Below, piece after piece: positions 10,836-35,091 of a DNA stretch of 64,000 nucleotides (its first letter is position 1; each line of letters begins with the position of its first letter). The stretch covers positions 224,001 to 288,000 of the forward strand of contig CBDEFO010000003.1 of the NCBI GenBank assembly GCA_965237525.1. The letters are read 5' to 3'. Made by a program: the position numbers and the translations under genes. This DNA comes from Candidatus Latescibacterota bacterium (GTDB lineage: Bacteria > Latescibacterota > CBDEFO01). The notes under the pieces were generated by a model. It had not been told where the DNA came from and made no database searches. It saw nothing but the letters and a program-made list of their open reading frames with translations.

Positions 10836-10991
10836 GCTTGACGCCGTGTGGCAGTGTTTGATCACATGCTTCTCTTGGCAGTGGGTCAGACAGGATTGTC
10901 ACTGGAAGGTTTCCTCACCATAGCGTTCACCTCCTGCCGCCTAAGATACTACAGAACTAATAATAGGGCAATACTAAGAGGAGTGACTACC
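10836..10991 (-). pseudogene. Possible degenerate IS1-like end with InsA zinc-ribbon fragment
   Basis: GGTAGTCACTC end on minus strand, AGGAGG SD, ATG at 10921 giving MVRKPSSDNPV then (with indel) CQEKHVIKH-HT; weak. Confidence 0.3.
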
Positions 10992-11735: not shown

Positions 11736-12356
11736 ATGAAGGTCAACAAAAAGGGAGTGGCTTTCTTGATTTCGGGGATGTGCAGCCCGTTTATCCTGCT
11801 CTTTCTGACCTCAATCCCTATAGTCTATCTGCATACATCTTCCCTCGGTCCCTTTCTGCTGTTCTTCTTTTTGACTCTTGTCTTTGTAATTATGGTTCCT
11901 CTGGCTTCTATTGTTATGCTGTTCGTAAAGGGGAAGATAACGAGCATACACATTATGGATAAAGGTGAACGCAAGCTCCCCTTTGTAGTGGCGATCTTAA
12001 GCGTGTGCCTCGGTCTGGGGTCTTTTTATCTTTTCGATGCTCCGCTTGAGCTTATCGTTTTGGCTATTACATTTATAGCTAATGGTATTGTTCTGGCGGC
12101 GATCACACCCTTTTGGAAAGTGAGCCTGCACGTAGCCGCGGCGACGTGCTGTTTTACAGCGGTGACCGTGTTCTGCGGATGGAAGATGTCTTTTTCGTTT
12201 CTTGCTCTTCCTCTCATATCGTGGGCGAGGATCTCGAGAGGGAGGCACAATCTTGCGCAGTCGCTGGGAGCAGTTTTGGCCTCACTGGTAGTGACGATTT
12301 TGATGTTCTATATATTCCTGCCCGATTATATACACAGGCTGTTGTCTTTCCAGTAG
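11736..12356 (+). CDS. PAP2-superfamily-like membrane protein
   Basis: Multiple TM helices; WKVSLH and WARISRGRH motifs. Confidence 0.7.
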   Translation: MKVNKKGVAFLISGMCSPFILLFLTSIPIVYLHTSSLGPFLLFFFLTLVFVIMVPLASIVMLFVKGKITSIHIMDKGERKLPFVVAILSVCLGLGSFYLFDAPLELIVLAITFIANGIVLAAITPFWKVSLHVAAATCCFTAVTVFCGWKMSFSFLALPLISWARISRGRHNLAQSLGAVLASLVVTILMFYIFLPDYIHRLLSFQ

Positions 12357-12539
12357 CAACGAATGATATACGGGGATGATCTGTTTGGACGATCTAAAAT
12401 CGTGGCTGACCCTATTGAACATTAAGGGTGTGATAAGACTAATAAATCTCTATTAAAATGTGTAAATATGGCTCATGCAGTTATGGATCCTGAGCTTTTA
12501 GTTCAAACTATCCATGGGGTAAAAAATAGATAAGAAAGA

Positions 12540-13874
12540 GTGTATAGAATGCCAATTCATAGAGAATCAACCAACATTAGTGGAAAGTTAGTTCCTAATA
12601 TTTTAATGGTAGGCTCAGGTCATTATACCACTGGTTGGGTTAAAGGACAACAAAACAAATCAGATAAGAAGATAGGTGTTATTGCTCCTGTTCTTTTTGA
12701 TCAAAGAAGATTAGGTAATGTAGGAAATTTATCTATGGTTGGAACGAATGGAACAAGATTCCCTGAGATAAGATCACATTTAGAAGAACATGTTGCACAG
12801 GTCTATAGAGACATGGATACTTCTTTTAGATCATTTCCAAATGATGACGTTAAAAGTAATCCTTTGGCATATTTGGAAGCTATGGAAACTTTGCATCCCG
12901 GAGATGCAGTTATAATTACCACACCAGATGATACCCACTTCAAAATCGCAAAAACTGCTATAGAAAAAAGTCTTCACTTTTTGATTACAAAACCTCCAGT
13001 AAAGACACTTAAAGAGCATCTTGAACTGATTAATATTGCAAAACAACATGATGTACTTGGTGCTGTTGATGTTCATAAAAGATATGATACAGTGTATGCT
13101 GATGCAAGGCAACAAATAAGGGGACAATTACAAAAACATGGACGTTTTACTAGCCTACAGGCACATATGACCATTGAAAAAAAACGACTGGATCATGTCC
13201 CTTGGGCTGGAAAGTCGAGCGATGTTAGTTATTATTTGAATTCACATCATATTGACTGGCATGTGTGGACTATGGAAGATATTGCTAGACCCGTTAAGGT
13301 TTATGCTACTGCTGCTCAAGGTATTGCTAATAACCCTCCGCATAATTTGCCGACAGAAGATATGATTATTTTAACTGTTGATTGGGAAAATTTCTCTGAT
13401 CCTAAAAATAATGGGATAGCTGTGTACATAGCAGGATGGGTAGATCCAACAAGTGATGTCTATACAGAACAAGGATTTAAAATCAATGTACCAGGGTACA
13501 AAATAGATGCTGACCAAAGTCGTAGAGGTTACATGACATCAGAAGATGGTCCAGGCATTAAGTCACTAAATCCCTTTTATATGAAGTACACACCCAATGA
13601 AGGAGGGTACTTTGATAGTAGCGGTTACGGGTGTTTATGCATTGCAGCTTTTATTGAAGCTATCGGTCAAATACTAAATAAACAAAAGACTGTAAAAGAT
13701 TATGATAAAACACTTCCCACAATTGCTAGGACAACCCAAATGACCGCAATTTTAGAAGCAGGAAGAGAAAGTTTAGATGCTGGAGGAGTTCCTGTGTCCA
13801 TTAAATATGATAAGAAAGATAAATCACTTCCGGTTGGACTGACTAAGTACAAATTATTAAGAACAAGAAAGTGA
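12540..13874 (+). CDS. Gfo/Idh/MocA family oxidoreductase
   Basis: LMVGSGHYTTG, IITTPDDTHF, ITKPPVKTL, VHKRYD, YYLNSHHID; visibly AT-rich relative to flanks. Confidence 0.8.
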   Translation: MYRMPIHRESTNISGKLVPNILMVGSGHYTTGWVKGQQNKSDKKIGVIAPVLFDQRRLGNVGNLSMVGTNGTRFPEIRSHLEEHVAQVYRDMDTSFRSFPNDDVKSNPLAYLEAMETLHPGDAVIITTPDDTHFKIAKTAIEKSLHFLITKPPVKTLKEHLELINIAKQHDVLGAVDVHKRYDTVYADARQQIRGQLQKHGRFTSLQAHMTIEKKRLDHVPWAGKSSDVSYYLNSHHIDWHVWTMEDIARPVKVYATAAQGIANNPPHNLPTEDMIILTVDWENFSDPKNNGIAVYIAGWVDPTSDVYTEQGFKINVPGYKIDADQSRRGYMTSEDGPGIKSLNPFYMKYTPNEGGYFDSSGYGCLCIAAFIEAIGQILNKQKTVKDYDKTLPTIARTTQMTAILEAGRESLDAGGVPVSIKYDKKDKSLPVGLTKYKLLRTRK

Positions 13875-14207
13875 CGAAAGAAAAATGTGTTTTTTGCAAG
13901 ACCTTGATTCATTATAGACAAGAAGAAAATTCGATTGGAGCAAGAAAGAAAATTTAAGTATAAACTTGCGTTCTTTGCCTCAGTCGTACATTTCCCATAC
14001 TAACTGATATAGTTGAAAATGAGGCTGACCCCCCTACTTAGCCGAAGGTTTATTCTAAAATTGGTTAAGGTTGCAGGAAACTTGTGCTCTCTCATTTTCT
14101 GATAACTTTCTCCTTCTCTTAATCCTAAGTCGCCTTACAAGATCTCTGTTAAGTGAACTATTAGATACGCACGCTGGCTTAATGTACAATAAGATTTGTA
14201 TCATTGA

Positions 14208-14696
14208 GTAATGGAGATGGGACATTTGCAGACAAGGTGTACTATACCGTTGGGCTGGATGCCACATCAGCATTCAGTGCAGATTTAGATGGAGATAATG
14301 ACTTGGCTGTGGCTAATGTTGAGAGCGGTAGTGTCTCAGTGTTTTTGAATCGCTCTGATATTCCCACTGCTGGCGTCACTGCTGTAATCAAGTATGAAGA
14401 ACCATTATCAGATATTCCCGAAGCTTATGCCATCTCGCAGAACTATCGAAATCCCTGTAACCCTGGGACGGTGCTCTATTATGATCTTCCTGTTTGAACC
14501 CGCGTTGAGCTATCTGGCTTCAACATGATGGGGCAGGAGGTGGCGACGTTGGTGGCTGGAGAGATCCGCGGGCAGGCTTTCAGTGGTCTGGGATGCTAAG
14601 GAGAGCGACGGACAGAGCCTCGCCAGCGGAGTCTATCTCTACCAGATCGAGGTAGATAGATTTCTGAAGACAAGGGAGCTGATATTAATGAGATAG
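14208..14696 (+). pseudogene. Decayed FG-GAP + FlgD-Ig tail gene fragment
   Basis: NGDGTFADKV...ADLDGDNDLAVAN...ISQNYRNPCNP then stop and frameshifts, ending ...LILMR*; no 5' end. Confidence 0.8.
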
Positions 14697-14721
14697 ACCT
14701 TCTTATTTTAAGTGATGCGAC

Positions 14722-14759
14722 AGAGCCGGAGCTCAGTTTATAAGGGCTTCGGTTTTTTG
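14722..14759 (+). terminator. Putative intrinsic terminator
   Basis: GAGCCGGAGC...GCTTCGGTT stem followed by a T run. Confidence 0.5.
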
Positions 14760-14789
14760 TCTAACTGAATCTGGCCGATGAAGTTATTG

Positions 14790-14818
14790 TTGACATCTGT
14801 TTCGTTTTTCCTTATCTT
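14790..14818 (+). promoter_or_regulatory. Sigma70-like promoter
   Basis: TTGACA-17nt-TATCTT upstream of 15024. Confidence 0.45.
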
Positions 14819-15023
14819 GTGATCCATATCACAGTACGGACGCTAAGGTTTGATTATCTTAACTGAGATAATTAAATGTAGGGGCGGGGTTATCCCGCCC
14901 CTATAGGATTGTAGTGGAACGTATATCCAAGAAGCCATCTTCAGCCCACGGATGAGGAGGTGAAACAAATTTTCCGGGCTTAAATAGAGTCGAAGTTTTG
15001 TCAATCTAAAGGAGGTTTTAACA

Positions 15024-16052
15024 ATGGCTGCCAAGACATTCTGCTTAGTCATTTTGGTCATAGCCATCTGCGCGCTTGCAACGTCTGCCACGGCGAAGAT
15101 TTGGCGGGTCGATAACAATCTTGGTAACGCGGCGGACTGGAGGACCATACAAGCGGCTCACGACGGCTCAGCAAGCGGCGATACGCTCTATGTTTCGGGT
15201 GCTGCAATTAGCTATGGTAGTTTGTTTGCTTCTAAAGAAACTCTTTATCTTCGGACCCGGTTATCTCCTGGGTGAAAATCCCAAAACCCAGGCAAATCTA
15301 TCCTCTGCCAAAACTGACAATATTAGATTCGACTCGGGTTCGGATAGTTCACTCGTCACGGGTTTAGATGTAAAGTTTACATTGGAAGTTAATGTTGGTG
15401 TGAGCAACGTTACTATCAAGAGAAATAGAATAGTCCACGGCAGTAATCCGGTTGTCTTGATAGACGACAATGCCACCAATATATTCGTTACACAGAATTA
15501 TATCCGTCAAACTGGTCTTTCTTCTAGCAACCACGCAATCCGAGTAGATCCTGGTGTCAGCTCTACTTTCATCAATAATAATTTCATAGAGGCTGTCACC
15601 ACAGGGCAAAACGCAATCAACGCAAGTAGCACCTCAGGTATCACCGTTGAGCAAATGTTATCCGCGGAGACGTGATAGTATATAATACGGGTTTTAACAA
15701 TAACGTATGGAGAGAGGGGACTTTTTCCGGTACTAATAATGCCATATTCAATAACATCACAAGTACGGCGCCTGCGGAGTTTGATACAACCAAGGGCAAT
15801 CAAACCAACGTAGATATGGCGACTGTTTTTGTGGGCACCGGCAGCACCGATGGCCAATGGCAATTGACAACAGGTTGTCCTGCAATCGGTGCGGGCTTAG
15901 GTGGTAATGATATTGGAATGTTCGGTGGACTTGATCCTTATATCCTTTCCGGGATGCCTGCCATTCCTGCAATTTACTTTTTCAGCGCCCCTGTACCCGG
16001 TTCAAACACCAGCGGCCTTCCGGCTCAAGTGAAAGTTAAATCGCATAACTGA
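15024..16052 (+). pseudogene. Secreted beta-helix-like protein, split by two frameshifts (~15237, ~15655)
   Basis: AAGGAGG SD, signal peptide, TIQAAHDGSASGDTLYV; continues KKLFIFGPGY in a second frame and DIGMFGG..PYILSGMPAIP in a third. Confidence 0.75.
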
Positions 16053-16174
16053 TAGTAAACAGCACACGTAAGTAGACAGCATATTTGTAGGGTCGAGCTT
16101 TTCTCCACCCAATGGTCGGGTAACCCAGCCTTTACACGATAGGTGATACGTAGAAGAGAAGGTGCCCTGCCTAC

Positions 16175-16222
16175 GAGATTGCTTCCCCCCGATAGATTCA
16201 ATCGGGGGTCGCTCGCAATGAC
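16175..16222. repeat. GAGATTGCTTC...TCGCAATGAC REP-like element containing the 21-bp hairpin
   Basis: GAGATTGCTTC CCCCCGATAGATTCAATCGGGGG TCGCTCGCAATGAC; related elements at 55394-55492. Confidence 0.65.
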
Positions 16223-16449
16223 ACGGTGTACTTTTGCCTTCGATCATTGAGAGGGGTGGAACCCCGACTCCGTCAGGAGTTACGACCCCGAGGAGACGCG
16301 AAGCGGAACCAGAACCAAGCTCAAAGACTTTTTTCTAATGAAAAGTAATCAGTAGGGGCGAGCTCATGTGTTCGCCCAGTAGGTAGGGGACACATCCTTC
16401 TCCCTATTTGCTAACAGAACAGGCCCCTCCCCATAACAGGAGTGTAGAG

Positions 16450-19400
16450 ATGAGTAGGGTGCAGTATGCACTCAGCGCGGTAATTCTTGCCATCTTGCTC
16501 GGTCCACAGGCGCCTTACGCACAGAACATTGTGCGGGTGGAGTACTACATCGACTCAGACCCCGGTTTTGGCAATGCAACACAAATGAGCATTACGCCTG
16601 CCCCCGAACTGGATCTGAACTTCAATGCAGATCTTTCAGGCATAAGCGCAGGTTTGCATTCTTTGTATGTTCGAGCCAAGGACGATAGTAGCAATTGGAG
16701 TCTGTCCTACGCAAAGCCCTTCATAACAGTTGCTTTGACTGTTGCGTCTGATATTACGCAGGTAGAATATTACGTAGACACAGATCCAGGTTTTGGAGCG
16801 GGTGTGGATGTGCCGATTACCCCGGGAAGTGACGTTACGCAGGATTTCACAGTTGACTTGAGCGGTCAAAGTAAAGGACTTCACGTTTTGTATGTTCGAG
16901 CCAGGGATCAAGGTGGCAATTGGAGTTTGTCCTATGCTAAGCCCTTCATAACAGTTGCTTTGACTGTTGCGTCTGACATTGCGCAGGTAGAATATTACAT
17001 AGACACAGATCCAGGTTTTGGAGCGGGTGTGGATGTGCCGATTACACCCGGAAGTGACGTTACGCAGGATTTCACAGTTGACTTGAGCAGTCAAAGTGCA
17101 GGCTTGCACGTTCTATATATTCGAGCCAAGGATCAAGGTGGCAATTGGAGTTTGTCCTATGCCAAGCCCTTCATAACACTTGCTTTGACTGTTGCGGCTG
17201 ATATTGCGCAGGTAGAATATTACATAGACACAGACCCAGGATATGGAGCGGGCGTGGATGTGCTGATTACGCCGGGAAGTGACGTTACGCAGGATTTCAC
17301 AGTTGACTTGACTGGCCAAAGCGAAGGACTTCACGTTTTGTATGTTCGAGCCAGGGATCAAGGTGGCAATTGGAGTTTGTCCTATGCTAAGCCCTTCATA
17401 ACAGTTGCTTTGACTGTTGCGCCTGATGTTGAGCAGGTAGAATATTACATAGACACAGATCCAGGCTATGGAGCGGGTGTGGATGTGCCGATTACACCGG
17501 GAAGTGACATTACGCAAAGTTTCGCAGTTGACTTGAGCAGTCAAAGTGCAGGCTTGCACGTTCTATATATTCGAGCCAGGGATCAAGGTGGCAGTTGAAG
17601 TTTGTCGTACGCCAAGCCCTTCATAACGGTCTCTCTCGCAGTTACTTCAAACATCACGAAGGCCGAATATTACATAGACACAGACCCTGGCCTTGGAAAT
17701 GGTGTAGAAATTCATATTACTACACTGGGGACTGACATTACACAGGATTTCACAGTTGACTTGAGCAGTCAGAGCGGAGGACTTCACGTTTTGTATGTTC
17801 GAGCGCAGGATGAAAGCGGCAATTGGAGTTTGTCCCTAGCCAAGAGCTTTACTGTCATTGTGGATGTTTCGCCTGAAGTTGTACAGATGGAATATTATAT
17901 CGACACAGACCCTGGCTTTGGAGCAGGTGTGGACGTGCCTATTTCTACACCTGGGAATGATGTCACGCGGGGTTTCATAGTAGACTTAAGCAGTCAATCC
18001 GAAGGACTTCATGTTCTATATGTTCGAGCCAAGGACCAAGGTGGTAACTGGAGCTTATCTCATGCCAAGGCTTTTTCGAGCGTAGTGTTGGCAGTTGCTT
18101 CAGATATTGTTAAGATGGAGTATTACATAGACACAGACCCTGGTTTTGGAGCAGGTGTGAATGTTCCTATTGCTACAGCGGGTGTTGACATTACACAAAG
18201 TCTCACAGTAGACTTGAGCGGTCAAGGAGATGGTCTGCACGTTCTATATATTCGAGCTAAGGATCAAAATGGCAGTTGGAGCTTATCTTATGCTAAGCCT
18301 TTTACGAAGGTTACTCTGGCAGTCGCTTCAGATATTGTTAAGATGGAGTATTACATAGACACAGACCCTGGGTTTGGAGCAGGTGTGAATGTGCCTATCG
18401 CTACACCGGGTGTTGACATTACACAAAGTCTCACAGTTGACTTGAGCGGTCAAGGAGATGGTCTGCACGTTCTATATATTCGAGCTAAGGATCAAAATGG
18501 CAGTTGGAGCTTATCTTATGCTAAGCCTTTTACGAAGGTTACTCTGGCAGTTGCTTCAGATATTGTTAAGATGGAGTATTACATAGACACAGACCCTGGG
18601 TTTGGAGCAGCTGTGAATGTTCCCATTGCTACAGCGGGTGTTGACATTACACAAAGTCTCACAGTAGACTTGAGCGGTCAAGGAGATGGTCCGCACGTTC
18701 TATATATTCGAGCTAAGGATCAAAATGGCAGTTGGAGCTTATCTTATGCTAAGCCTTTTACAAAGGTGACTTTAGCTGTGGCGTCTGATATTGTTAAGAT
18801 GGAGTATTACATAGACACAGACCCTGGCTTTGGAGCAGGGGCGAATGTTCCTATTGCTACAGCGGGTGTTGACGTTGAGCAAAGTTTTGTGGTTGACCTG
18901 AGCGTTCAGAGCGATGGTCTGCACGTTCTATATATTCGGGCCAAGGATCAAAATGGGAATTGGAGTTTATCTTATGCTAAGCCTTTTACGAAGGTGACTT
19001 TAGCTGTGGCGTCTGATATTGTTAAGATGGAGTATTACATAGACACAGACCCTGGCTTTGGAGCAGGGGCGAATGTGCCTATTGCTACACCGGGTGTTGA
19101 CATTACACAAAGTCTCACAGTAGACTTGAGCGGTCAAGGAGATGGTCTGCACGTTCTATATATTCGAGCTAAGGATCAAAATGGGAATTGGAGCTTATCT
19201 CATGCCAAGCCTTTTACAAAGGTGCGTCGTGACATTGCCCCAAATATCACTGCTGTTGAATACTATTTCATTAAGGACGGGGCAAAGACCCAGGTCAGTA
19301 CTTACACGAATTTCACATTCGCAACAGATGTTGGGGCCAATTTCGTAGCGGATATATCAGCCTTGGATAATAATAGTGCCTACAATTGGCATATCTACGG

Positions 19401-20934
19401 CATAGCTGAGAACGGCAGAAGGAGTTTGGAGTACGTTCACTCATTTACGGTCGGAAACGCCCCTCCGGTTGCCGTGGACGATACCGTAACCACGCCTGAG
19501 GACACGTCGATTGTAATCGCTGTGCTTTCCAACGATTTTGACGTGGCCGGAGACACGCTCAAAGTCCACTCGGTCGACACGACCGGCACTGAAGGAAGGG
19601 TCGTCGTCGATCCCGGCGATACTACGGTAGCCTATACGCCCAAGGCCGACTTCAACGGTATAGACACGTTCGAGTACGTGCTAACAGATGGCGCACTGAC
19701 TGACACAGCCACGGTCACGGTGACAGTGGAACCGGTGAACGACGCGCCGGGGGACTTTCTCCGGCTCTTGCCCGCAGACAGTAGCCTCGTCCAGCTCGAT
19801 TCTGTCCTTTTCCTCTGGACAGCAGCGTCCGATGCGGACAGGGATACGGTGGAATATACGATAAATATCTCCTTCGCTCAGATCGATACGAGCTTTGTCG
19901 TGGAAGACACGATGTTAGCGGTCTATTTCCGAACGTTTGAGCTGCCCAAGGCCCAGCTTCCTGTGACGTGGTTGGTAGTCGCCTCAGATGGCATCGTGAC
20001 CTCCGGTCCGACCAATGGAAACGGGAACTTTACTTTGAACACGCCACTCCTGTTCGGCGATGTATCGGGCAACGGGGAGATCACCTCCTTCGATGCGGTG
20101 CTGATCTTGCAGCATACGGTGGGGCTGATCACACTGACGGATCCCTTTGCCCGCGTTGCAGATGTCTCCGACAACGGCAGGATCAGTGCCTTTGACGCCG
20201 CTTTGGTGCTGCGCTTTGTCGTGTCGGCTATCCCGTGCCTCCCGGCTGACCCAGACTGTGGAGTATTAGCTAAGGGGAAAGCCGTTGCAGGCACACTTGC
20301 CTGGTCAGAGACTCGGTCAGGAGATGTGCCCGGACACGTCGATCTGCCGATCGTGTGGGACAGTGAGATGGGAGATGTGATCTCCGCACAGTTCACCGTG
20401 CAGATCGACACGAGTTTTGCAAAGGTAGTAGATGTGGTTTCGAACCTTCCGGAGGACTGGCATATGGTGCATAGTTTCTCCCACGGTGAGCTAAAAGTGG
20501 CGATGGCTGGTCTCACACGTATATCTGACGCACGCTTAGCTACGCTCCGGTTGCTGATGAGCGAACGGGAGGCAGAGGTGACGATTCGCGGTGTAGGGTC
20601 AGTGAACGAGGAGTTGGAGCAGGAGTTGGGAGCTGCAAGGGTCCGGTATGTCCCGAAGGAGTACGCGCTGGAGCAAAACTATCCCAATCCATTCAATCCC
20701 CAGACTGTGATCCGTTACGACCTTCCTGTTGGAAGTCACGTTACCTTATCTGTCTTTAACATAGTGGGACAGAAAGTTGCCACACTGGTGAATGAGGAGA
20801 TGGATGGAGGCAGTTACTCTATCGTCTGGGACGGTAAAGATCATAGTGGAAGGAGCCTTGGCAGCGGAGTCTATCTGTATCGGTTAGAGACAGATGGGTT
20901 TGTTCAGATAAAAAAGCTGGTGTTGATGAGATAG
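16450..20934 (+). CDS. Large secreted protein: 12 tandem 75-76 aa EYYIDTDPG repeats, Ig/cadherin-like domain, dockerin, cohesin-like domain, FlgD-Ig tail; interrupted by in-frame TGA at 17596
   Basis: ORFs 16408-17598 and 17602-20934 are in the same frame; TGA sits where sister repeats have TGG; dockerin GDVSGNGEITSFDA..ADVSDNGRISAFDA; LEQNYPNPFNP tail. Confidence 0.85.
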
Positions 20935-21112
20935 GATCCGTTCAAAAGAGATAATATCTTGTAGCTAAGGTAGACTATCCTCGGAGATAGGAGGCGATGC
21001 AAAAATATCTTGATTTTCGGATCAGTTTGGGGTATATTGTTACCTAAATGAGATCGTCACCTGATAGATAATCGTGTTTTTTTAATTTGCATCATAGTCA
21101 AGGAGATAGATT

Positions 21113-22939
21113 ATGTACGGATGGACAGGAAAGATTCTGCGCGTTGACCTTACGCGCGGCACGTGGCAGGTTGAGGATGTGCCGAAAGCGTGGATGCGCG
21201 ATTTTGTCGGCGGACGCGGGCTGGCGGCCAAGTACCTATACGAGGAGATGGACCCTATGGTGGACGCTTTAAGTCCCGAGAATAAATTGATTCTGGCTAC
21301 GGGTCCCCTTACTGGCACGCCCGTCTCCTGCGGTGCGCGCTATATGGTCGTGACCAAGGGGCCTTTGACAGGGGCTATTACCACATCCAACTCCGGCGGA
21401 CACTGGGGACCGGAGCTCAAGTTCGCAGGTTACGATATGGTCATCGTAGAGGGGAAGGCACAAAAGCCGTCCTACATCTTCATCTACGACGACCGCGTGG
21501 AAATACGCGATGCCAAGAACGTATGGGGCAAGACGGTCTCTGAGACTGAAGACCTTATCCGTGCGGAATTGGGCGTTCCGGGCACGCGTGTGACGGGCAT
21601 AGGCCCTGCAGGAGAAAATCTCGTTCGGTTCGCCTGCATTATCAACGACAAGCACCGTGCGGCGGGGCGCTCCGGTGTGGGCGCCGCTATGGGTTCCAAG
21701 AACCTGAAGGCTATCGCCGTGCGGGGCACAAAAGCTGTCAGGGTCGCGCGCCCTGAGGATTTTATGCGCTCTATGTGGGACTTTGCCCAAAAGCTTGCCA
21801 AAAGCCAGGAGCGAGCAGGCCTGACAGAATTAGGCACACCTCCGACTATCGATCTTGTCAACGCCTTCGGCGGCCTTCCGACGCGCAACTTTCAGGAGGG
21901 ACAGTTCGAGCAGGCGGACAACCTCAATGGCAACAGCATCAAAGACCAGCGGCTTGTAACAAATAAAGCCTGTTTTGCGTGCAATATCGCCTGCGGGCGA
22001 GTGACGCAGTTGGGGGACGGATCGGGCAAGTTCCTGGTCAACACTCACCCGCGCAACTGGGACGTAGCCGGCGAAGGCCCCGAATACGAGACGGTCTGGG
22101 CGCTCGGCGCAGATACGGGTGTGGGTGACCTGGACGCGGTGATCAAGGCTAACTTCCTTTGCAATGATCTGGGTATGGACCCCATCTCGATGGGTGCGAC
22201 ACTTGCCGCTGCGATGGAACTCTACGAGAAGGGCTTCATCAATGACTCGATGGTTGAAATTCCCCTGGAGTTCGGAAGCGGCGACGCCCTGGTGCGTATG
22301 ACAGAGGCGACGGGCTACCGAGAAGGCTTCGGAGACGAACTTGCCCAGGGTAGCAAACTCATGACGGAAAAATTCGAGCATCCCGAATTCTTTATGGGCG
22401 TCAAGGGCCAGGAATTTCCGGCTTATGACCCGCGGGGTTTCCAGGGCATGGGAGTCGCCTATGCCACCTGCAACCGCGGCGCATGCCACATTCGAGCCTG
22501 GACGCCCGCTGTAGAGGCGTTAGGGGATATGGACCCGCATACGACCGAGGGCAAATCCAAATGGGTAGTAGACGAGCAAGATAGGACGACGGTGCACGAT
22601 GCGACGGGTATCTGCCTGTTCATCACAGCGGGCTCTTCGCTTGAGGACCTCCTGCCCTGCCTTATAGGAGCTACAGGTATCGATTACACCTGGGACGACT
22701 TCGTCAAAGCCGGTGAGCGCATCTGGAACATCGAGCGCCTTTGGAACCTCAAAGCGGGGCTGACTTCCAAGGACGATACCCTGCCCAAGCGTCTGATGAC
22801 CGAGGCGCACAAATCGGGACCGTCGGAGGGCGTCACCGTCAAGTTAGACCAGATGTTGCCCGAGTACTACGAAGAGCGAGGCTGGACGCCCGACGGAGAG
22901 CCGAGGGAGGAGAAACTTGTGGAGCTGGGACTGATGTAA
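21113..22939 (+). CDS. aor: Aldehyde:ferredoxin oxidoreductase (tungsten AOR family)
   Basis: YGWTGKILRVDL, SNSGG, AAGRSGVGAAMGSKNLKAI, CxxCxxxC, EGPEYET, DDTLP-like KDDTLPKR; SD AAGGAG. Confidence 0.93.
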   Translation: MYGWTGKILRVDLTRGTWQVEDVPKAWMRDFVGGRGLAAKYLYEEMDPMVDALSPENKLILATGPLTGTPVSCGARYMVVTKGPLTGAITTSNSGGHWGPELKFAGYDMVIVEGKAQKPSYIFIYDDRVEIRDAKNVWGKTVSETEDLIRAELGVPGTRVTGIGPAGENLVRFACIINDKHRAAGRSGVGAAMGSKNLKAIAVRGTKAVRVARPEDFMRSMWDFAQKLAKSQERAGLTELGTPPTIDLVNAFGGLPTRNFQEGQFEQADNLNGNSIKDQRLVTNKACFACNIACGRVTQLGDGSGKFLVNTHPRNWDVAGEGPEYETVWALGADTGVGDLDAVIKANFLCNDLGMDPISMGATLAAAMELYEKGFINDSMVEIPLEFGSGDALVRMTEATGYREGFGDELAQGSKLMTEKFEHPEFFMGVKGQEFPAYDPRGFQGMGVAYATCNRGACHIRAWTPAVEALGDMDPHTTEGKSKWVVDEQDRTTVHDATGICLFITAGSSLEDLLPCLIGATGIDYTWDDFVKAGERIWNIERLWNLKAGLTSKDDTLPKRLMTEAHKSGPSEGVTVKLDQMLPEYYEERGWTPDGEPREEKLVELGLM

Positions 22940-22983
22940 GAACGAACAGAAAAGTTGCGGCGTTCTGCCTCAGTATACTGTAG

Positions 22984-24287
22984 CGGTTATTTATCAAATG
23001 AAATCGGTGCACTTCTCTTTCGATCTTTGATTGATCTTGAATGATAGGTTTTCGACAATCTTTGGTTTCTGTTCTTTTTCAAAATGGATGTATAATTGTT
23101 CTTCTTTTAGGTTCCATTCAGCCAGGACAAAGTAGTTGGTGTAAGAGGAGGGAAGAGATACTTTCTCATTTAGGACATCGATAAAGGCTTTATCTGTCTG
23201 TTCTGTGTCCTGTTTGACTTGTCTGATAAAATAGGTCTTGGGAATGAAATCTTTCTCGTTTGACTTCTCTTGCTTAGGTGGACGGTAGCCGGTGTATCTC
23301 TGTGATGAAAGATTAAACCATTCTAACTTCTGATCAACTTCTTGTAAGCTTTTGAACTGAATTCTGTTCCAGAACTTCCTTGAAAATACAGAATTGTTGC
23401 CTTCTATAGATGCTTGAGAAAAGGGCCTTCTGGGAACGGCAAATATCGGAATCACTTGATTTTTCAAGAGAAACTGCATTGCTTTGCTGACATTCCTTTT
23501 ACCTGAAACACTGCCAATAGTCGCCGAGCAATTGTCCACCTTAACGAAATCTGGTTTTTCAAACCTGTCAAAGAAAGACTGACACTTCTCGATAAAGTTA
23601 GTTGCTGTTTGACCGTCAACCCGCCGAAAATACCTTAACTTAGGCTCTTTCTTAAAGGAAAATCCAACGAAGTTGACCGGCTCAGTTCTGCCGGTAAGAT
23701 ACTTTTTACCAATAAAGTCTGATTCTAGGACTCTGCCTCCTGAAAGATAGTAAATGGTATACTCTGGATAACAAAGATAACGAGATGCACCCTTGTTTTT
23801 ACCTTTCTTCCTTCTCTGGGAAAGTCCTAAATCTGAAAGCATTCTGCCGATAGTCGGCAACGACGGAGGAGGGGTGCTAGAATATCGATTCCTCCATTCT
23901 TGTTCAATAACAGTGGCTCCTGAATAGAACTGATAAGGATCGTCCTCTAAGCTATGGTAAATCTCTTTGATTCTCTGTTCGTCAACTTTAGCCAATTTTC
24001 GCCTTTTTCCTTTTGGCCAACCCCGATTATCCATGGCAAAATCCTGATCCAGAGATTTAGTCCAAGCCGTAACGAAATCATTGGAAACTCTCGCTTGTTT
24101 GATAACTTCTCGCTTTGACATTTCTTTCTTAAAATACATCTCGTTGACTTCTTGTCTTAATACGGCCAATCTCTCTTTGTCCATAGGACTCCGTAGATTA
24201 AAGTTAAGACAATCAACTCAACTTAATCTACTAATACTCTAAACAAAGATCAAATTAGGTGCACCGATTTCATTTGATATTCAACCG
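22984..24287 (-). mobile_element. Intact IS with ~29-bp imperfect TIRs and 4-bp GTAG target duplication
   Basis: Left CGGTTATTTATCAAATGAAATCGGTGCAC, right (rc) CGGTTGAATATCAAATGAAATCGGTGCAC; GTAG at 22980-22983 and 24288-24291. Confidence 0.9.
22994..24184 (-). CDS. DDE transposase, integrase-core type (IS481/ISNCY-like)
   Basis: N-terminal HTH; ESDF, KVDN, QASIEG putative D-D-E; fills the TIR-bounded element. Confidence 0.8.
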   Translation of the reverse strand: MDKERLAVLRQEVNEMYFKKEMSKREVIKQARVSNDFVTAWTKSLDQDFAMDNRGWPKGKRRKLAKVDEQRIKEIYHSLEDDPYQFYSGATVIEQEWRNRYSSTPPPSLPTIGRMLSDLGLSQRRKKGKNKGASRYLCYPEYTIYYLSGGRVLESDFIGKKYLTGRTEPVNFVGFSFKKEPKLRYFRRVDGQTATNFIEKCQSFFDRFEKPDFVKVDNCSATIGSVSGKRNVSKAMQFLLKNQVIPIFAVPRRPFSQASIEGNNSVFSRKFWNRIQFKSLQEVDQKLEWFNLSSQRYTGYRPPKQEKSNEKDFIPKTYFIRQVKQDTEQTDKAFIDVLNEKVSLPSSYTNYFVLAEWNLKEEQLYIHFEKEQKPKIVENLSFKINQRSKEKCTDFI

Positions 24288-24461
24288 GTAGCCACTGGGC
24301 GACTGTCAAAGAGATGGTCGCCCTTTTTCCTATGCTCAACCATTATCCTCGCACTACAGAGTCGTTGCAGTTTGATACATACTTGCCAAGGAGGCTTGAA
24401 ATGCGAGGGACAATTTTACACATTTCCCTGGCGCTGTTGTCCCCGATTGAATCTATCAGGG

Positions 24462-24683
24462 ATCAACCTCCTGCTCCTTCGGATCCTTGCGACCACGCCG
24501 AGACTTCAGGCTCTCCTGGCCTCCTTCTAAGAAACTATCACGCCAAGCATACGCCTGCTACTGGCTGATTCCATTCTTCCGACATACTTCCGATACATCC
24601 ACTCCTTTCAAAAGAGTCAGCACCACCTCTGCCTTTCGGGTCACCGTCCAGCGCTTACTATCTTTCACTTCGGGGCTTGACAC
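24462..24683 (-). pseudogene. IS3-family OrfA-like transposase remnant
   Basis: Manual translation from GTG 24683 (SD AGGAGG): MSSPEVKDSKRWTVTRKAEVVLTLLKGVDVSEVCRKNGISQ*QAYAWRDSFLEGGQESLKSR. Confidence 0.65.
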
Positions 24684-25345
24684 TTTGACCTCCTTTCCCC
24701 GATAGTATCACTCGGGGACAAGCCTCAAACCCCAATTTGCAAAATATTTGTCGCTCTGTCAAGGGGAGCGGTATGCCGCAGCGTCTTCTACTGTAAGAAG
24801 ATACGATGCCGATGGCAGCAAAAAGACGACTTTCGGCAGAGTTTCGGCACCTTCGCCAAAAACAAGAGGATCAAAATGAAGTCCCACTTCGCGATCGAAG
24901 TAAAGAGCGTCCTCATTCATGCCCCTAACTTTTGCTTCGGTACATCCATGAGCAAATTGGAAGTATTGTTTAACTTCCTCAGTTCCTGGCATGTATCAGA
25001 AAGTTTTCCTGGGCTGATGTGAAAAACTTACTACAAAAGTTATGATCCAGCGGAGGAAGACACTCTTTGTTAATGTTGAAAGACCGGTTAAGTTCTCTGG
25101 GTGGGACATATGGAAAGGATTTAATCTTGTTAGAAACAGAAGACTTTTCCTTGTTATCTGCTCAAGGATTTAGTATATTAGTACGTATCACCTATGAGCA
25201 AGGTAGAAATATCTGGAGGAGGATTTACGTGAAAAAGTTTGTGGTATTCCCTCTTAGTGGACATGGAACCCTGCCGGCCTCATTTACTATTCATGAAGAG
25301 CAGTTAATTCTACTTGCTGAAGAAGAAAAGAAAACAGTCGAATCC

Positions 25346-25504
25346 GTTGATCTTCCTACAGTTCAGAAACTTATGGGACACAAGACCATCGAGATGACAT
25401 TACACTATGCCCATCTTACCCCAGATCATCTAAAAGATTCTATCAATAAACTGAATCTTGGTGGACACTATTTGGACACCGAGCAAAAACTGGAGGGCAG
25501 GTAG
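25346..25504 (+). pseudogene. Tyrosine recombinase/integrase C-terminal remnant
   Basis: VDLPTVQKLMGHKTIEMTLHYAHL carries the box II H and catalytic Y; upstream part of the ORF is unrelated. Confidence 0.85.
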
Positions 25505-25550
25505 AAACAGGATACTATTGCGTATGCTGTTGATAAACCATAACATACAT

Positions 25551-26648
25551 ATGAATGATCTAAAATCGTGGCTGACCCTATTTAACATTAAGGGTGTGGG
25601 ACCGAACCGCTTTCGGGCTCTTGTAGGGAAGTTCGGATCTCCCGCGGCGGCTCTTGAGGCGAGCACTTCTGATCTGATGTCCGTGCCTACTATAGACGAA
25701 AAGATATCAGCCGCTATAAAGGGATACGAAAACGAGGTGGAGATAGAAAGACAGATGGCGGCCATAGAAAAAAAGGGAGTTCGTCCTATCACGTGTTTCG
25801 ATACAGATTATCCCGAGTTGCTGAAGAACATATACGATCCTCCGCCTATGCTGTTTGTGAAGGGAACTATAAAGGAGGAGGATTCCTCGGCAGTGGCTGT
25901 GGTGGGTACGCGCAACCCTAAGCGCTACGGGAAGATGATGGCTGAAAAGCTGTCCAGGGACCTAGCTGATGGGGGAATTACCGTAGTAAGCGGGCTTGCA
26001 CGGGGAATAGACTCACTAGCGCATAAGGGCGCGCTGTCAAGAGGAGGACGGACAATAGGCGTGTTGGGCTGCGGCGTTGACGTGGTCTATCCCCCTGAAC
26101 ATAAGAAACTCTTTGAGGCCGTTATCGCTAATGGTGCCCTCATCTCCGAGTTTCCGATGGGGACAAGACCGGAAGCACCGAACTTCCCCCGCAGAAACAG
26201 AGTCATAAGCGGCATGAGTTTAGGTGTTGTGATAGTTCAGGCGCCGGCCAAAAGTGGCGCTCTTTTGACGGCTCGATACGCTCTGGATCAAAACAGGGAG
26301 GTATTTTCCGTACCAGGGAACGTGGACGATATGCAGAGCCGCGGGACAAATGGCCTCATCAAACAGGGGGCAAAGTTAGTAGAAGACGTAGAGGATATAC
26401 TTGTGGAGATAAAGAGCTCCCTAAGGATACCGATAGAGCCGAAGCCGCCTGTGCCTGATGACGTTGAGGAATTGGAACCTAATGAAAGGTCGGTGCTCCA
26501 GGCTCTGACGGACGAGCCAAAGCATATAGACGCCATATGCAATCAGACGAGCTTAGAACCGTCTATTACCTTGGCTGCACTCTTATCATTAGAACTTTCG
26601 GGACTGGTAAGACAGCTTTCGGGGAAGATGTTTTTAAGACAAGTATAG
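25551..26648 (+). CDS. dprA: DNA-processing protein DprA
   Basis: YPELLKNIYDPPPMLF, AVVGTR, VVSGLARGID, FPRRNRVISG, SGALLTA, C-terminal winged helix. Confidence 0.96.
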   Translation: MNDLKSWLTLFNIKGVGPNRFRALVGKFGSPAAALEASTSDLMSVPTIDEKISAAIKGYENEVEIERQMAAIEKKGVRPITCFDTDYPELLKNIYDPPPMLFVKGTIKEEDSSAVAVVGTRNPKRYGKMMAEKLSRDLADGGITVVSGLARGIDSLAHKGALSRGGRTIGVLGCGVDVVYPPEHKKLFEAVIANGALISEFPMGTRPEAPNFPRRNRVISGMSLGVVIVQAPAKSGALLTARYALDQNREVFSVPGNVDDMQSRGTNGLIKQGAKLVEDVEDILVEIKSSLRIPIEPKPPVPDDVEELEPNERSVLQALTDEPKHIDAICNQTSLEPSITLAALLSLELSGLVRQLSGKMFLRQV

Positions 26649-30350: not shown

Positions 30351-30460
30351 TTCAGTACCCTTTCATTTGGTGGTTTATATGCTGAGAGACTGATTGGACT
30401 TCAAGATATGGGGCTTATATACTTGAGTGCCAATGGGGGAGGTAAGTGTCATGACTGATT

Positions 30461-30781
30461 CTACTGTTCGGACAGAAGACGTGCAAGCTGATTCAGAGTT
30501 GTGTCAGAAAGATGTTGAAAAATTTGTTGCACAAGGTGTGTTAGATCTTGCTCATTACATAGAAAGACAAGGCCAGCATTTTCCGGTAGAGGAATCTCGG
30601 AACCTGTCAAAGTTGTTTCCCCACCTACCCCCTTGGACTCTTCCTCGCACTGCGTCAGGGGACGTATTATCATAGCAATATAATGAGGCTTATCATGCAC
30701 TTGACGAACTTCACAATATTTTGTCTGGTACACGCATCCAAACTCTTTATACAGTTCTTCGATGGTATCTGGTGAAGACAT
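30461..30781 (-). CDS. Hypothetical passenger protein
   Basis: 106-aa ORF with AAGGAG SD, divergent from the transposase. Confidence 0.45.
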   Translation of the reverse strand: MSSPDTIEELYKEFGCVYQTKYCEVRQVHDKPHYIAMIIRPLTQCEEESKGVGGETTLTGSEIPLPENAGLVFLCNEQDLTHLVQQIFQHLSDTTLNQLARLLSEQ

Positions 30782-30896
30782 CGCAAATCTCCTTGTTGAA
30801 GCGTGAGAAAGTTTAGTGCGGAATTTTTATTGTTTTGTCAAGTAAAAATGCTATATGGAGGACAGAAAAAGCCATACTTAAGTGCCACAATTATGC

Positions 30897-30925
30897 TTGA
30901 CATGGTGGTTCATATTGGGTATATT
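30897..30925 (+). promoter_or_regulatory. Sigma70-like promoter of the transposase
   Basis: TTGACA-17nt-TATATT upstream of 30972. Confidence 0.55.
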
Positions 30926-30971
30926 TAATTGTTAAACAATACGTTATCTCGGTTTTGAATCTCCACAAAAG

Positions 30972-31929
30972 GTGAGTAAGATGGCACATAAAGCACCTGG
31001 TAAGTACTTCCGTAAGGGCATGTCTTTCATTGATCTTTTTCGCTTATTCCCTGATGATGGTGTTGCTGATGCGTTTTTCGCTGAGGTACGCTGGCCTGAT
31101 GGTCCCCAGTGTCCCTACTGCGGTTATGCCAATGTCCAGGAAGGTGCGGCGCATAAGACTATGCCTTACCGGTGCCGCAAGGATGGTTGCCGCAAGCGTT
31201 TCAGCGTCCGCATTGGCAGTATCATGGAAGCGTCACCTATCGGTTATCAGAAATGGGCTATTGCCATATACTTGTTGACAACCAATCTTAAGGGCGTGTC
31301 CAGCATGAAACTGCATAGGGATTTGGAAATCACTCAGAAGAGCGCATGGTTTCTTGCCCATCGCATCCGCAAGACCTTTGACGAGGGTGGTGACTTCTTT
31401 GCTGGCCCTGTCGAGGTGGATGAGACTTACGTGGGCGGCCTGGAAAAAAACAAGCATGCGAGCAAGAAGTTGCATGCGGGTCGTGGTACGGTGGGCAAGA
31501 CGGCGGTCGTCGGGGCGCGTGATCGGGAGACGAACCGTATTGACGCTGAGGTGGTAGAATCCACTGATGGGGGTTACCTTACGGGGTTTTGTGTACCGGC
31601 GTACGGAGCCGGGGGCTACTGTTTATACGGATGAGGCTACGGCGTATAAGAGTTTAGAAGGTGTGAATCATGAGTCCGTCAAGCACTCTGTTGGTGAGTA
31701 TGTGGATGGGCAGGCCCACACCAACGGTTTAGAATCGTTCTGGTCTATGCTTAAAAGAGGGTATATCACGGCACCTATCACCGTGATGAGTGTGAAGCAC
31801 CTTGGCAGGTATGTTAATGAGTTTTCGGGGCGTCACAACGTGCGGGATGCTGATACGTTAGTACAAATGGCGTGGATTGCCCAGAGGATGATGGGCAAGC
31901 GCCTTAAATACAAGGAGTTGACAGCATGA
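30972..31929 (+). CDS. IS1595-family transposase (frameshift near 31570; compensating indels near 31765-31785)
   Basis: RWPDGPQCPYC zinc ribbon, GVSSMKLHRDL, VEVDETYVGG, VYTDE, HTNGLESFWSMLKRG. Confidence 0.9.
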
Positions 31930-32044
31930 GTAGACCTAAGAGGGAAGTATCGAAGGACATTCCTCGGTTTCCACACGCTTTACTCTTTATACCTGAGAAA
32001 TTATGTAAGTGATGAAGCTTATCTCAAGGCGAGGGAGGAGTTTC

Positions 32045-32359
32045 TTAAGTTGGAGGCTGAGTCGAAGGCCCGTGTGGAGAGAGAAGGGTATCCATGTTTG
32101 ATTTTACCTGGTTAAGACGGTTATATAGATACACTCTGGCATCTGCAATTCCAGAAGGCCAGGGGTCGCCGGTGCTGAGGTTAAACTGATTCATTATATG
32201 GTGAGCATCATTTATGAGTCCCACAACTTCGGTTTTCGGGTCTTTGGAAAGCGCAAGTGCTTGGCGCAAACATAGTGATATAACCATACATTCAACAGCA
32301 TATACGCGAGCACCGAGAGTTGTAAACCATCTGGTGATTTCTTCATCGTCTTGTTTCAT
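32045..32359 (-). CDS. Hypothetical passenger protein
   Basis: 104-aa ORF, no recognisable motif. Confidence 0.4.
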   Translation of the reverse strand: MKQDDEEITRWFTTLGARVYAVECMVISLCLRQALALSKDPKTEVVGLINDAHHIMNQFNLSTGDPWPSGIADARVYLYNRLNQVKSNMDTLLSPHGPSTQPPT

Positions 32360-32440
32360 CGTCTTGTTTCATCGGAAGTTCCTTTCTTTTGGTATGGGAG
32401 TGAGAGGCGGAATTTACAGGACAGATGCTTACTGAGGTAT

Positions 32441-32977
32441 TTACTTCCAGTAGTCGGGTTTTAGCCATGGTACATACCAGTGGACTTCCACCTTGTTATT
32501 GTAATTTCTTTCAACGTATAGGAATTTCAGGAATGTGCGTTCATCGTAGAGCATAGTTTCCCAGTTTACATTTAGGTTGCTTGGCAGACGTACTTGAGCA
32601 ACCATGGTTGTATCTGTGAAGCCTTTGTAGTCCTGTGTTTCGGCGCTCAGGTTGAACCAGTGGTTTCCATTGGTGTTTTTCAATGTGTCACTTTCGGCAA
32701 TGCGTTTCATAAAAGAGGAAATATTATTGATAAAGAGTATTCTCAGGGTGCCTGCTGTTAAATAGTTCTTTTGAAAGTTATCAATGATGAGGGTATATTG
32801 GAATGGATTTTCATTGCGTAAGAGAAAGTCAACATCAGTGTCTGATCCAAAGCAGTGTTTGGCATGCCAGGCCAGGATGTCTTTGCGGGAAGCATCTGGC
32901 GGTGGTTTTGCTTCTGAGCAGGATATAGAGAATATGGCAAGCAGGCCAATGAGTGTGTTTTTGACAAAGAAATCCAT
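32441..32977 (-). CDS. Hypothetical passenger lipoprotein
   Basis: Lipobox-like ISC after a hydrophobic stretch; AAGGA SD. Confidence 0.6.
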   Translation of the reverse strand: MDFFVKNTLIGLLAIFSISCSEAKPPPDASRKDILAWHAKHCFGSDTDVDFLLRNENPFQYTLIIDNFQKNYLTAGTLRILFINNISSFMKRIAESDTLKNTNGNHWFNLSAETQDYKGFTDTTMVAQVRLPSNLNVNWETMLYDERTFLKFLYVERNYNNKVEVHWYVPWLKPDYWK

Positions 32978-33170
32978 TTTATTCTTCCTTGTCCTGGGTT
33001 GCGTATCCTGGGCTTATGGTTATGGCTGTTGTATTAGGCAGGCTACCCGACCTACGGGTTCCGTCTGATTGGTGACTGGCAATATAAGTTGTTTTGTGTG
33101 GTATGCAAGCGTTTTTTAATATTCTTTGCTTGACAGGGTAGAATTTTTCTCTCTTTAAGGAGGTTATACT

Positions 33171-33353
33171 ATGGGCAAGTCAATTAAGACAATGGAGATG
33201 ATAGAGCGTGTTAGGGGTGGTGAGGATGCTGGGGATGTGATAGCGGGCAAAGAGGTGAAGAAAGAGGAGGGTAAGGAAGATGGTAAGGAGGAAGGTGTTA
33301 GCCTGAGAGAGCGTACGGAGCGTTTTCTTGGTGCTCGGCGGGCTAAGAGGTAG
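33171..33353 (+). CDS. Small charged hypothetical protein
   Basis: Strong AAGGAGG SD; upstream of the MTase gene. Confidence 0.5.
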   Translation: MGKSIKTMEMIERVRGGEDAGDVIAGKEVKKEEGKEDGKEEGVSLRERTERFLGARRAKR

Positions 33354-33397
33354 TAGAATGTAGTAGAGTAGGGAAGTTATAGAAGGAGGTAGATGAC

Positions 33398-34641
33398 GTG
33401 GAGCCGAATTGGAAGGGCAAGACGGTTTTTACGGGTGACAACTTGTATGTTATGCGGGGTATGAATAGCGAGTCTGTTGACTTGATATATCTCGATCCGC
33501 CGTTTAACAGCAACCGGGCGTATGCTGCCCCCATAGGTAGTGAGGCTGCGGGTGCTGCTTTTAAGGATACGTGGACTCTTTCGGATGTTGATCTTGTGGA
33601 GCATAACCGGTTGAAAGAAGAAAATGTCGGTTTGTATACCCTTATGGAGTCTGCGAAACACCTCCATTCTAAGGGTATGTTTTCTTATCTGGTCATGATG
33701 GCGGTTAGGTTGCAAGAGATGCGGCGTATTTTGAAGCCTACGGGTAGTATTTATCTGCATTGCGATCCTACGGCAGATAGCTACTTGCGGTTGGTTATGG
33801 ATGGAATTTTCGGGCATGGGAATTTTCGGAATGAGGTTGTTTGGTGTTATCGTGGTGGTGGTGTTGCTAAATATGATTTTGCCCGAAAACACGACGTAAT
33901 TTTTCGTTATTCCAAGACCAAAAAAGTTGTTTTCAATGTGGATGATGTTAGAATTTCATACTCAAAATCTGTTCTTGAATCATCTACCAGTCGTTACGAC
34001 AAATCTTATAGAGCCAGCAAGGTGTACTCGGGATACAGACCAAACGAGAAAGGCAAACATCCTGAAGATTGGTGGGAAATTCAACCGATTATGCCGTCAT
34101 CAAAGGAGCGTATTGGATACCCGACACAAAAACCGTTAAAAACTGTTGGAGCGTATTATCAAAGCCAGTAGCAACCGGGGCGATGTTGTGTTGGACCCTT
34201 TTTGTGGTTGTGCTATGACTATGGTTGCGGCGGAAGACCTTGGTAGAAATTGGATGGGTATAGATATATCTCCGAAGGCTGTTGAGTTGGTTGTGTCTCG
34301 GATACGGGACCGTCAGGGTCTTTTTAGGGATATAACGCACAGGGACGATATACCGCGTCGGACGGACCTTGGCGAAGAAGTTGAGGGGTAAGGGCAAAGA
34401 CGAATGCAAGAAGACTCTGTATGGTCTCCAGGAAGGATATTGTAACGGTTGTCATGAGCATTTCCAAATCCGTAATTTTCACATGGATCATATTACTCCG
34501 AGGGCTAAGGGTGGTACGGACCATGCCGAGAATTATCAACTGTTATGTGGAGACTGCAACCATAGAAAGGGCACCAAGAGCCAGGCCGAGTTCAAGGCAT
34601 TATTGGCGAAGGAAAAAGGAATCAGTACGTCATGGATATAA
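33398..34641 (+). CDS. DNA methyltransferase (N6/N4, beta-type motif order) fused to C-terminal HNH endonuclease; frameshifts near 34140 and 34373
   Basis: DLIYLDPPFNS, GSIYLHCD, GYPTQKP, VLDPFCG; then CNGC..HMDHITPRAKGG..QLLCGDCNHRKG. Confidence 0.82.
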
Positions 34642-34651
34642 GGAGGGTGTT

Positions 34652-34864
34652 ATGGGCATCGGGGATGGTAATAAGAAGGGCAGGGTAGGCAAGGCATGTG
34701 GAGGCAAGGAGATAGACAGCCGTTATCAGCCTACGAAGGTGGAGTTGGAGGCGGACCTGAGTTTGCCGGAGGGTGTAACGCCGGAGGAAGTAGTGCGGGC
34801 GATGTTTTCGGGTGATCCGCCGAGGGTAGAGTCGGGCAAGGGGAAACCGTCTACGGAGAAGTGA
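34652..34864 (+). CDS. Small hypothetical protein at the element's right end
   Basis: AAGGAGG SD; MGIGDGNKK...YQPTKVELEADLSLPEGVTPEEVVRAMF. Confidence 0.5.
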   Translation: MGIGDGNKKGRVGKACGGKEIDSRYQPTKVELEADLSLPEGVTPEEVVRAMFSGDPPRVESGKGKPSTEK

Positions 34865-35091
34865 CAGGAGTATGGGGGGAACTACGTTGGTGGTGCTATG
34901 GACTTTTGGCACTCAAGTATATAAGCCCCCAAGATATTAACAAACAGGTCAAAGTCAATTCCTTTTTCACGGCGAATGACGACCATTAACGAGCGAACTG
35001 CGATTATTCCTATAACTTCATAATGCAAAGGATGCTATCTGATTAAGATCAATTTCCTTGTCTGTACGAATCCATCTGCTTTCGATCCATC

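Follow-up and report, generated by a model that had tools for sequence, protein, structure and literature searches.

A decayed tyrosine-integrase element as the probable source of the replaced 5' end of dprA in a Candidatus Latescibacterota bacterium

In the genome of a Candidatus Latescibacterota bacterium (GTDB lineage Bacteria; Latescibacterota; CBDEFO01; assembly GCA_965237525.1, here G000) the 5' end of the gene dprA occurs twice, with a block of about 13.2 kb between the two copies, which raises the question of what placed the block there and what became of the gene. The window analysed is a 64,000-nt stretch of contig CBDEFO010000003.1 (positions 224,001 to 288,000 of the forward strand), and positions are counted from its first nucleotide. 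The block is read here, with a probability of roughly 0.75, as a decayed tyrosine-integrase element that integrated site-specifically and replaced the 5' end of dprA. An initial annotation of the window had proposed an island integrated in the 5' end of dprA and supplying it with a replacement start, and this is supported by the repeat, by the spacing between the integrase tyrosine and the repeat, and by the island state common to the only two genomes of the class, G000 and the congeneric G001. The features of the locus are collected in Table 1.

The direct repeat covers 42 bp, at 12391-12432 and 25557-25598, with 41/42 positions identical and the copies 13,166 bp apart. No third copy was found by blastn in the 4.58-Mb genome (E 2e-11). 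The right copy encodes residues 3-16 of DprA, and the edge of the repeat block coincides with the dprA start codon, the block comprising codons 1-16. The left copy is in frame with an ATG at 12376, 19 nt past the gene of a 206-aa membrane protein, and the frame read from this ATG gives MICLDDLKSWLTLLNIKGVIRLINLY with the stop at 12454-12456. This frame and its stop had been annotated correctly, the translation given with them being short by seven residues, and also the duplicated repeat and the tyrosine-integrase C-terminus before its right copy were borne out by the sequence. In G001 the left and right copies agree over 47 bp (44/47). The four copies of the 42-bp core in the two genomes show three differences, each of them private to one copy, and the copies were therefore identical near the time of the split between G000 and G001.

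The start codons were compared by the energies of anti-Shine-Dalgarno duplexes, computed against the 16S tail of the genome itself. The duplex before a TTG at 12385 reached -8.2 kcal/mol (-9.8 in G001), against -1.8 before ATG 12376 and -1.7 before the present dprA start at 25551. Furthermore, the right copy of G001 opens with MDDLK, which is the reading given by a TTG start. Taken together, the ribosome-binding site of the TTG and the opening of the G001 copy indicate that the element would have duplicated dprA from its start codon onward and left the ribosome-binding site behind. The native start of dprA is thus probably TTG 12385 and not ATG 12376: the earlier view that an upstream native start was left behind holds, its choice of the ATG being the less likely one by the ribosome-binding site. 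Upstream of 25551, the alternative in-frame starts are preceded by weak sites (-0.4 to -4.1 kcal/mol), and ATG 25524 is not kept in G001.

The integrase sequence before the right copy is a C-terminal tail matching positions 143-170 of PF00589 (E 3e-5, below the cut-off). It ends 52 nt upstream of the right copy and 46 nt before the ATG, so that the block has, as active tyrosine-integrase islands do, a target repeat at both ends and an integrase gene beside the attachment site; also the target gene is reconstituted, as a 365-aa DprA. The intact integrase of an active island is missing, since only the last 55 residues are left in G000 and G001 of a protein that measures 342-368 aa in its relatives, and the element is classed as a remnant. 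The tail differs between the two genomes by no synonymous and four non-synonymous changes. That the integrase is truncated and the island fixed, as first annotated, is supported by the same truncation in both genomes.

The position of the tail relative to the repeat was compared with 28 loci drawn from its best matches in the phylum. A tRNA gene was present at most 520 nt downstream in 21 of these relatives. In 19 of them the tRNA is antisense, and for 14 of these 19 the distance between its 3' end and the catalytic Tyr codon is 131-163 nt; here the repeat starts at 147 nt. This spacing is the main support for the block being the site of the integrase.

The spacing also bears on a reading in which the locus is a recombination scar, accessory DNA having been inserted by homology-facilitated or insertion sequence (IS)-driven recombination along with an integrase tail that strayed in from a tRNA island, with duplication of the dprA 5' end. 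The genome is rich in IS (49 copies) and integrase fragments (15 matches to PF00589), several cargo genes have paralogues elsewhere in it, and targeting of dprA was seen in no other sample, all of which would suit such a scar. Against a scar speak the repeat start, which lies within the range of the tRNA ends in 14 of 19 relatives, and the beginning of the block at the start codon; no tRNA gene is present in the window, and the IS is younger than the island. This origin is considered unlikely.

Three further remnants of this kind of integrase were observed in G000 (C3:397100-397800, C8:386300-386545 and C7:415308-415785), two of them adjoining tRNA-Thr genes and the third without a neighbouring tRNA. 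Short fragments are also present at C7:372765, C7:460361 and C7:547852, two of which have a common 152-nt downstream region (94% identical); these fragments resemble integron-integrase tails. Among cluster representatives, 1,565 relatives of the tail were found; within the best 150, the tail itself excluded, identity did not exceed 69%.

The same island is present in the complete genome G001, where it is 89-95% identical in nucleotides, the repeat copies are 13,496 bp apart, the fusion open reading frame (ORF) is truncated in the same way and the IS is missing. Both junctions are present in it with substitutions of their own, and misassembly, which the initial annotation had named as one of two findings that would overturn it, is therefore ruled out. 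An assembly artefact could be suspected in G000, with its 8 contigs and many repeats, and its probability is negligible in view of the junctions of G001 and of contigs from two sequencing runs that span the left junction. Four of 23 listed runs were compared at that junction. The contigs of X4 and X6 span it in the island form, and the same two runs have contigs of the right junction; X8 leaves the junction uncovered, and X5 extends no more than 14 nt to the left of the 42-bp core. Because the right-junction contig of X4 matches neither genome exactly, a third island-bearing lineage is suggested. A metagenome scan with DprA gave five loci of 42-52% identity. The alignment to G001 begins at window position 10876 and has a gap at 30408-34931, the neighbourhood thus differing on both sides of the island.

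The rebuilt gene is whole, with Pfam matches to DprA_N, DNA_processg_A and DprA_WH and a match to TIGR00732 above the cut-off. Between G000 and G001, 16 of its 262 synonymous sites and eight of its 833 non-synonymous sites are changed (dN/dS, the ratio of non-synonymous to synonymous rates, 0.15; Fisher p 9e-6). Because the truncated integrase is common to both genomes, the island was already immobile before their split, and the selection acted on the rebuilt dprA. Judged from this purifying selection between two island-bearing genomes, dprA most likely stayed expressed with the island in place.

The initial annotation had also suggested that integration and excision could switch transformation. 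In a reversible competence switch like that of SpyCIM1 at mutL (PMC4689407), dprA would be silent with the island in and restored once the island is excised, either at present or up to the recent past, and an integrase might act on it in trans. After excision dprA would indeed regain a good ribosome-binding site (-8.2 instead of -1.7 kcal/mol), and comEC, comM and a comEA-like gene are present in the genome. Against a switch speak the integrase truncation, identical in both genomes, the best tail matches in G000, which are broken remnants, a T>G change of the left copy of G000 inside the candidate overlap, and the conservation of dprA with the island present. Of 1,391 long ORFs, 23% have a site before their first ATG that is as weak as that of dprA; since translation may begin elsewhere than at the first ATG, this is a rough background. 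A switch of this kind is quite improbable, and the earlier suggestion is not supported; no intact cognate of the broken integrase was found in G000. With a broken integrase beside a whole and conserved dprA, a working on/off switch is unlikely; the level of DprA may have been lowered.

A second, shorter DprA-like frame is present at G000:C7:728873-729736 (40% identical, 300-aa open frame), about 0.25 kb from a transposase-like ORF, and occurs also in G001. Matches to dprA with internal stops were observed in three other genomes of the phylum (G151:C55:16045-16938, G051:C24:44557-45612 and G027:C1:3367597-3368685). The 91-aa fusion ORF that contains the integrase tail is open in both genomes behind a ribosome-binding site of -12.0 kcal/mol, and its transcript could carry dprA.

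Several results weigh against a site-specific integration into dprA. No empty site was found, the sole congener G001 being occupied as well, and none was seen at the left junction in the four runs (0/4), in contigs, which drop rare variants. No intact cognate integrase was found in G000, all tail matches there being broken. Taken singly, the attachment-site signals other than the spacing are weak. The inverted repeat at 25575-25595 matches in 5/7 positions and is tied with another placement, and its centre lies 180 nt from the Tyr codon, just below the 182-211 nt at which the anticodons lie in 14 relatives. An IHF-like match (8/9 to the consensus) has a shuffle frequency of 3.2%; a score this high was found in just 6 of 19 relatives, and the match is farther from the block than theirs. 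Promoter-like sequences upstream of dprA numbered three against 1.6 +/- 1.2 expected, which is no excess, both the promoter and the terminator scans staying near chance level. The cargo annotation includes no replication, excision or transfer genes, and the GC content of the island (46.8%) is close overall to that of the genome (49.1%).

Nor was a recurrence of the arrangement found. An integrase match or a 5' duplication was found in none of 49 other dprA loci of the phylum, both controls being positive; 40 of these loci had at least 10 kb upstream and nine less than 10 kb, and in five the true 5' end may lie outside the stretch that was tested. Correspondingly, dprA was absent from the flanks of related integrases at 79 genome loci (the best 80 of 517 minus the congener site L194) and 83 viral loci (four plus the best 79 of 546). 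Full-length homologues beside dprA 5' duplications, for which the initial annotation had proposed a search, were thus not found among these best matches. The sampled loci contained no full-length cognate integrase and no second example adjacent to dprA, no collection-wide scan for an integrase tail at a dprA start having been made.

Tail matches were present in 48 of the 168 phylum genomes, and none besides those of G000 and G001 was near dprA when coordinates were compared by eye (nearest 69 kb). No phage match was found. Of upstream matches to the N-terminal profile, seven were inspected, six being ComEA-type proteins and one the dprA ORF itself; three further matches, outside these seven, were weak (E 0.17-0.89). 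In six other genomes of the phylum (L286, L297, L303, L305, L310 and L317), dprA is preceded at a distance of 3-7 kb by a ComEA-type gene.

Integration by XerCD at a dif-like site in the dprA start, as in IMEX elements, was also considered. The right copy matches one Xer arm in 10/11 positions, a motif that has 54 such matches in the genome, and the identity of the copies stops 2 nt past the 6-nt spacer. The other arm is matched in 4/11 positions only, so that two Xer arms around a 6-nt spacer are not present, and the left copy of G000 has lost the arm match. The motif was spotted after the fact, in G001 the site and the point opposite dnaA are about 400 kb apart, and the integrase of the element itself adjoins the site. 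Integration by Xer recombinases is very improbable.

With integration by the element's own tyrosine integrase, the sequence of events could have been as follows. The attachment site of the element would have consisted of an ATG and about 16 dprA codons, 147 nt behind the catalytic Tyr, these codons taking the place that the 3' end of a tRNA gene has in relatives. A crossover near the far end of the block would have left the native ribosome-binding site, the TTG start and a dead 5' fragment of dprA at the left end, and the rebuilt, ATG-started dprA at the right end. The integrase would have been cut to 55 residues before the split between G000 and G001, which would have fixed the island, and the IS insertion and nonsense changes in cargo genes would have come later in G000. 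The gene would have been kept in use, probably from a promoter inside the right end of the island and with a weak ribosome-binding site.

A doubtful extension of this is that a lineage of the integrase exchanged tRNA 3' ends for the dprA 5' end as its target and evolved an attachment site that restores the start codon and 16 codons without the ribosome-binding site, and that integration turns DprA down with no knock-out. Were this so, transformation would be lowered and the element shielded from curing at little cost to the host, and intact members might be expected in unsampled deep-branching bacteria.

To the left of the block, the 206-aa membrane protein has no Pfam or NCBIfam match. The gene annotated as PAP2-like before the left copy is present; its PAP2 identity has no family match, the one lead coming from a language model (cosine 0.96), with PF01569 assigned to 11% of a single cluster. 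Homologues of the membrane gene in 11 other genomes do not lie beside dprA, and outside the genus dprA is often preceded by obgE. Of the claim that dprA was cut off from its native operon and Shine-Dalgarno sequence, the loss of the native ribosome-binding site stands; outside the genus, an operon of dprA and the membrane gene is not conserved. Between G000 and G001 the membrane gene has three synonymous and nine non-synonymous changes (dN/dS about 1), and its dS of 0.02 is far under that of its neighbours. These counts are small, and relaxed selection and recent exchange are both possible.

Of the cargo genes, two are split in G000 and whole in G001. The IS481-like element has 49 near-full copies in the genome, with no Pfam match and a score under the NCBIfam cut-off; the copies are near-identical, as after a recent burst. 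The broken repeat of about 300 nt to its right resembles a remnant of a transposase helix-turn-helix, a label that goes with no family match. A REP-like short palindromic repeat, CCCCGATAGATTCAATCGGGG and variants, occurs at 16187-16207 and 24441-24461 and has many copies in the genome.

Table 1. Features in and around the block between the two copies of the dprA 5' end, in window coordinates.
Feature	Position	Strand	Basis or remark
Membrane protein gene, left host flank	11736..12356	+	Same position in G001
Stranded native ribosome-binding site and probable native dprA start TTG	12371..12387	+	Anti-Shine-Dalgarno duplex energies
Left copy of dprA 5' end, putative attL identity block	12386..12432	+	42-bp core 12391-12432
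Gfo/Idh/MocA oxidoreductase, low-GC block (36%)	12540..13874	+	Family match; dN/dS 0.23 against G001
FG-GAP / FlgD-tail protein gene remnant, family abundant in genome	14204..14696	+	Family match, genome search
Secreted-type protein, two ORFs in G000, one 343-aa ORF in G001	15076..16052	+	Paralogues at C8 ~919-922 kb
Large Ig-repeat / cadherin / dockerin / FlgD-tail surface protein	16408..20934	+	Stop 17596-17598 splits the G000 copy; 2040-aa single ORF in G001
Aldehyde ferredoxin oxidoreductase, GC 57%	21113..22939	+	66%-identical paralogue at C8 ~1.145 Mb; dN/dS 0.11
IS with IS481-like transposase, later insertion	22981..24290	-	Absent at this place in G001
Broken multicopy ~300-nt repeat	24465..24776	-	24 genome matches
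91-aa fusion ORF: 36 unrelated residues and integrase tail, strong ribosome-binding site	25229..25504	+	About neutral evolution
Tyrosine-integrase C-terminal remnant, 55 aa	25337..25504	+	Catalytic Tyr codon 25406; GGACAC at 25463 and 25474
Right copy, putative attR identity block, element-supplied ATG	25551..25598	+	Imperfect 7-7-7 inverted repeat 25575-25595, candidate crossover
dprA, intact, 365 aa, purifying selection	25551..26648	+	ORF, family matches and dN/dS

What the locus can signify is bounded by its being one fixed and decayed island in one genus with an apparently working dprA, which does not demonstrate control of transformation; its weight would grow with an intact element or with a fall in the level of DprA. 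Among known classes of elements it resembles the cis-mobilisable elements (CIMEs), as attL and attR are kept, the element's own recombinase is lost and the cargo is retained. Unlike in a CIME, no cognate helper element was found in G000.

The first 16 bases of mutL are the insertion site of SpyCIM1 of Streptococcus pyogenes, which acts as a switch (PMC4689407), and here, too, the insertion is in the 5' end of the gene that would be controlled. SpyCIM1 excises, replicates and silences mutL, whereas the dprA island has no replication or excision gene in its cargo annotation, its integrase is broken, leaving it without a working module for either, and dprA is under purifying selection.

In the portion of the work consulted, large serine recombinases are reported to target dprA, PF02481 being present in 9 of 1,069 target clusters and in none of 908 background genes (false discovery rate 0.032; Durrant et al. 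2022, PMC10083194). Those elements disrupt dprA, while the island described here has a tyrosine integrase and leaves the ORF whole. Elements that interrupt comYC, comGA, comFA, comEC, ssbB, comM and comK are treated in a 2025 review (PMC12378983), the likeness being an element in a transformation gene and the difference that theirs inactivate the gene; dprA does not appear in section 13 of that review. Nor does the locus show the interrupted target ORF of the comM and comK type. In the parts of PMC11472951 consulted, DprA is named once, for its function.

The closest likeness is to tyrosine-integrase islands that restore their target, an outcome that is standard for this class of integrase (Islander and TIGER type; PMC12884075). 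Shared with these are the two hybrid attachment sites, the identity block, the neighbouring integrase gene and the reconstituted target, and the nearest relatives of the tail mostly face tRNA genes at the same spacing. The island differs in having a 55-aa integrase remnant and no empty site found, and in its target, which is the 5' end of a protein gene instead of a tRNA 3' end, so that the start codon is replaced. The literature searched yielded no description of such an island, with a tyrosine integrase, at the dprA 5' end; the TIGER gene lists on the integrity of regulated genes, outside the search, may bear on novelty. With dprA already published as a target of serine recombinases (PMC10083194, in the portion consulted), what is new is that a tyrosine integrase occurs in combination with replacement of the 5' end. 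It adds a route for elements in transformation genes, in an uncultured phylum, by which a tyrosine integrase rebuilds the start of the gene and leaves it unbroken, and it looks like a preserved move of an integrase from a tRNA to a protein-coding target at the same spacing.

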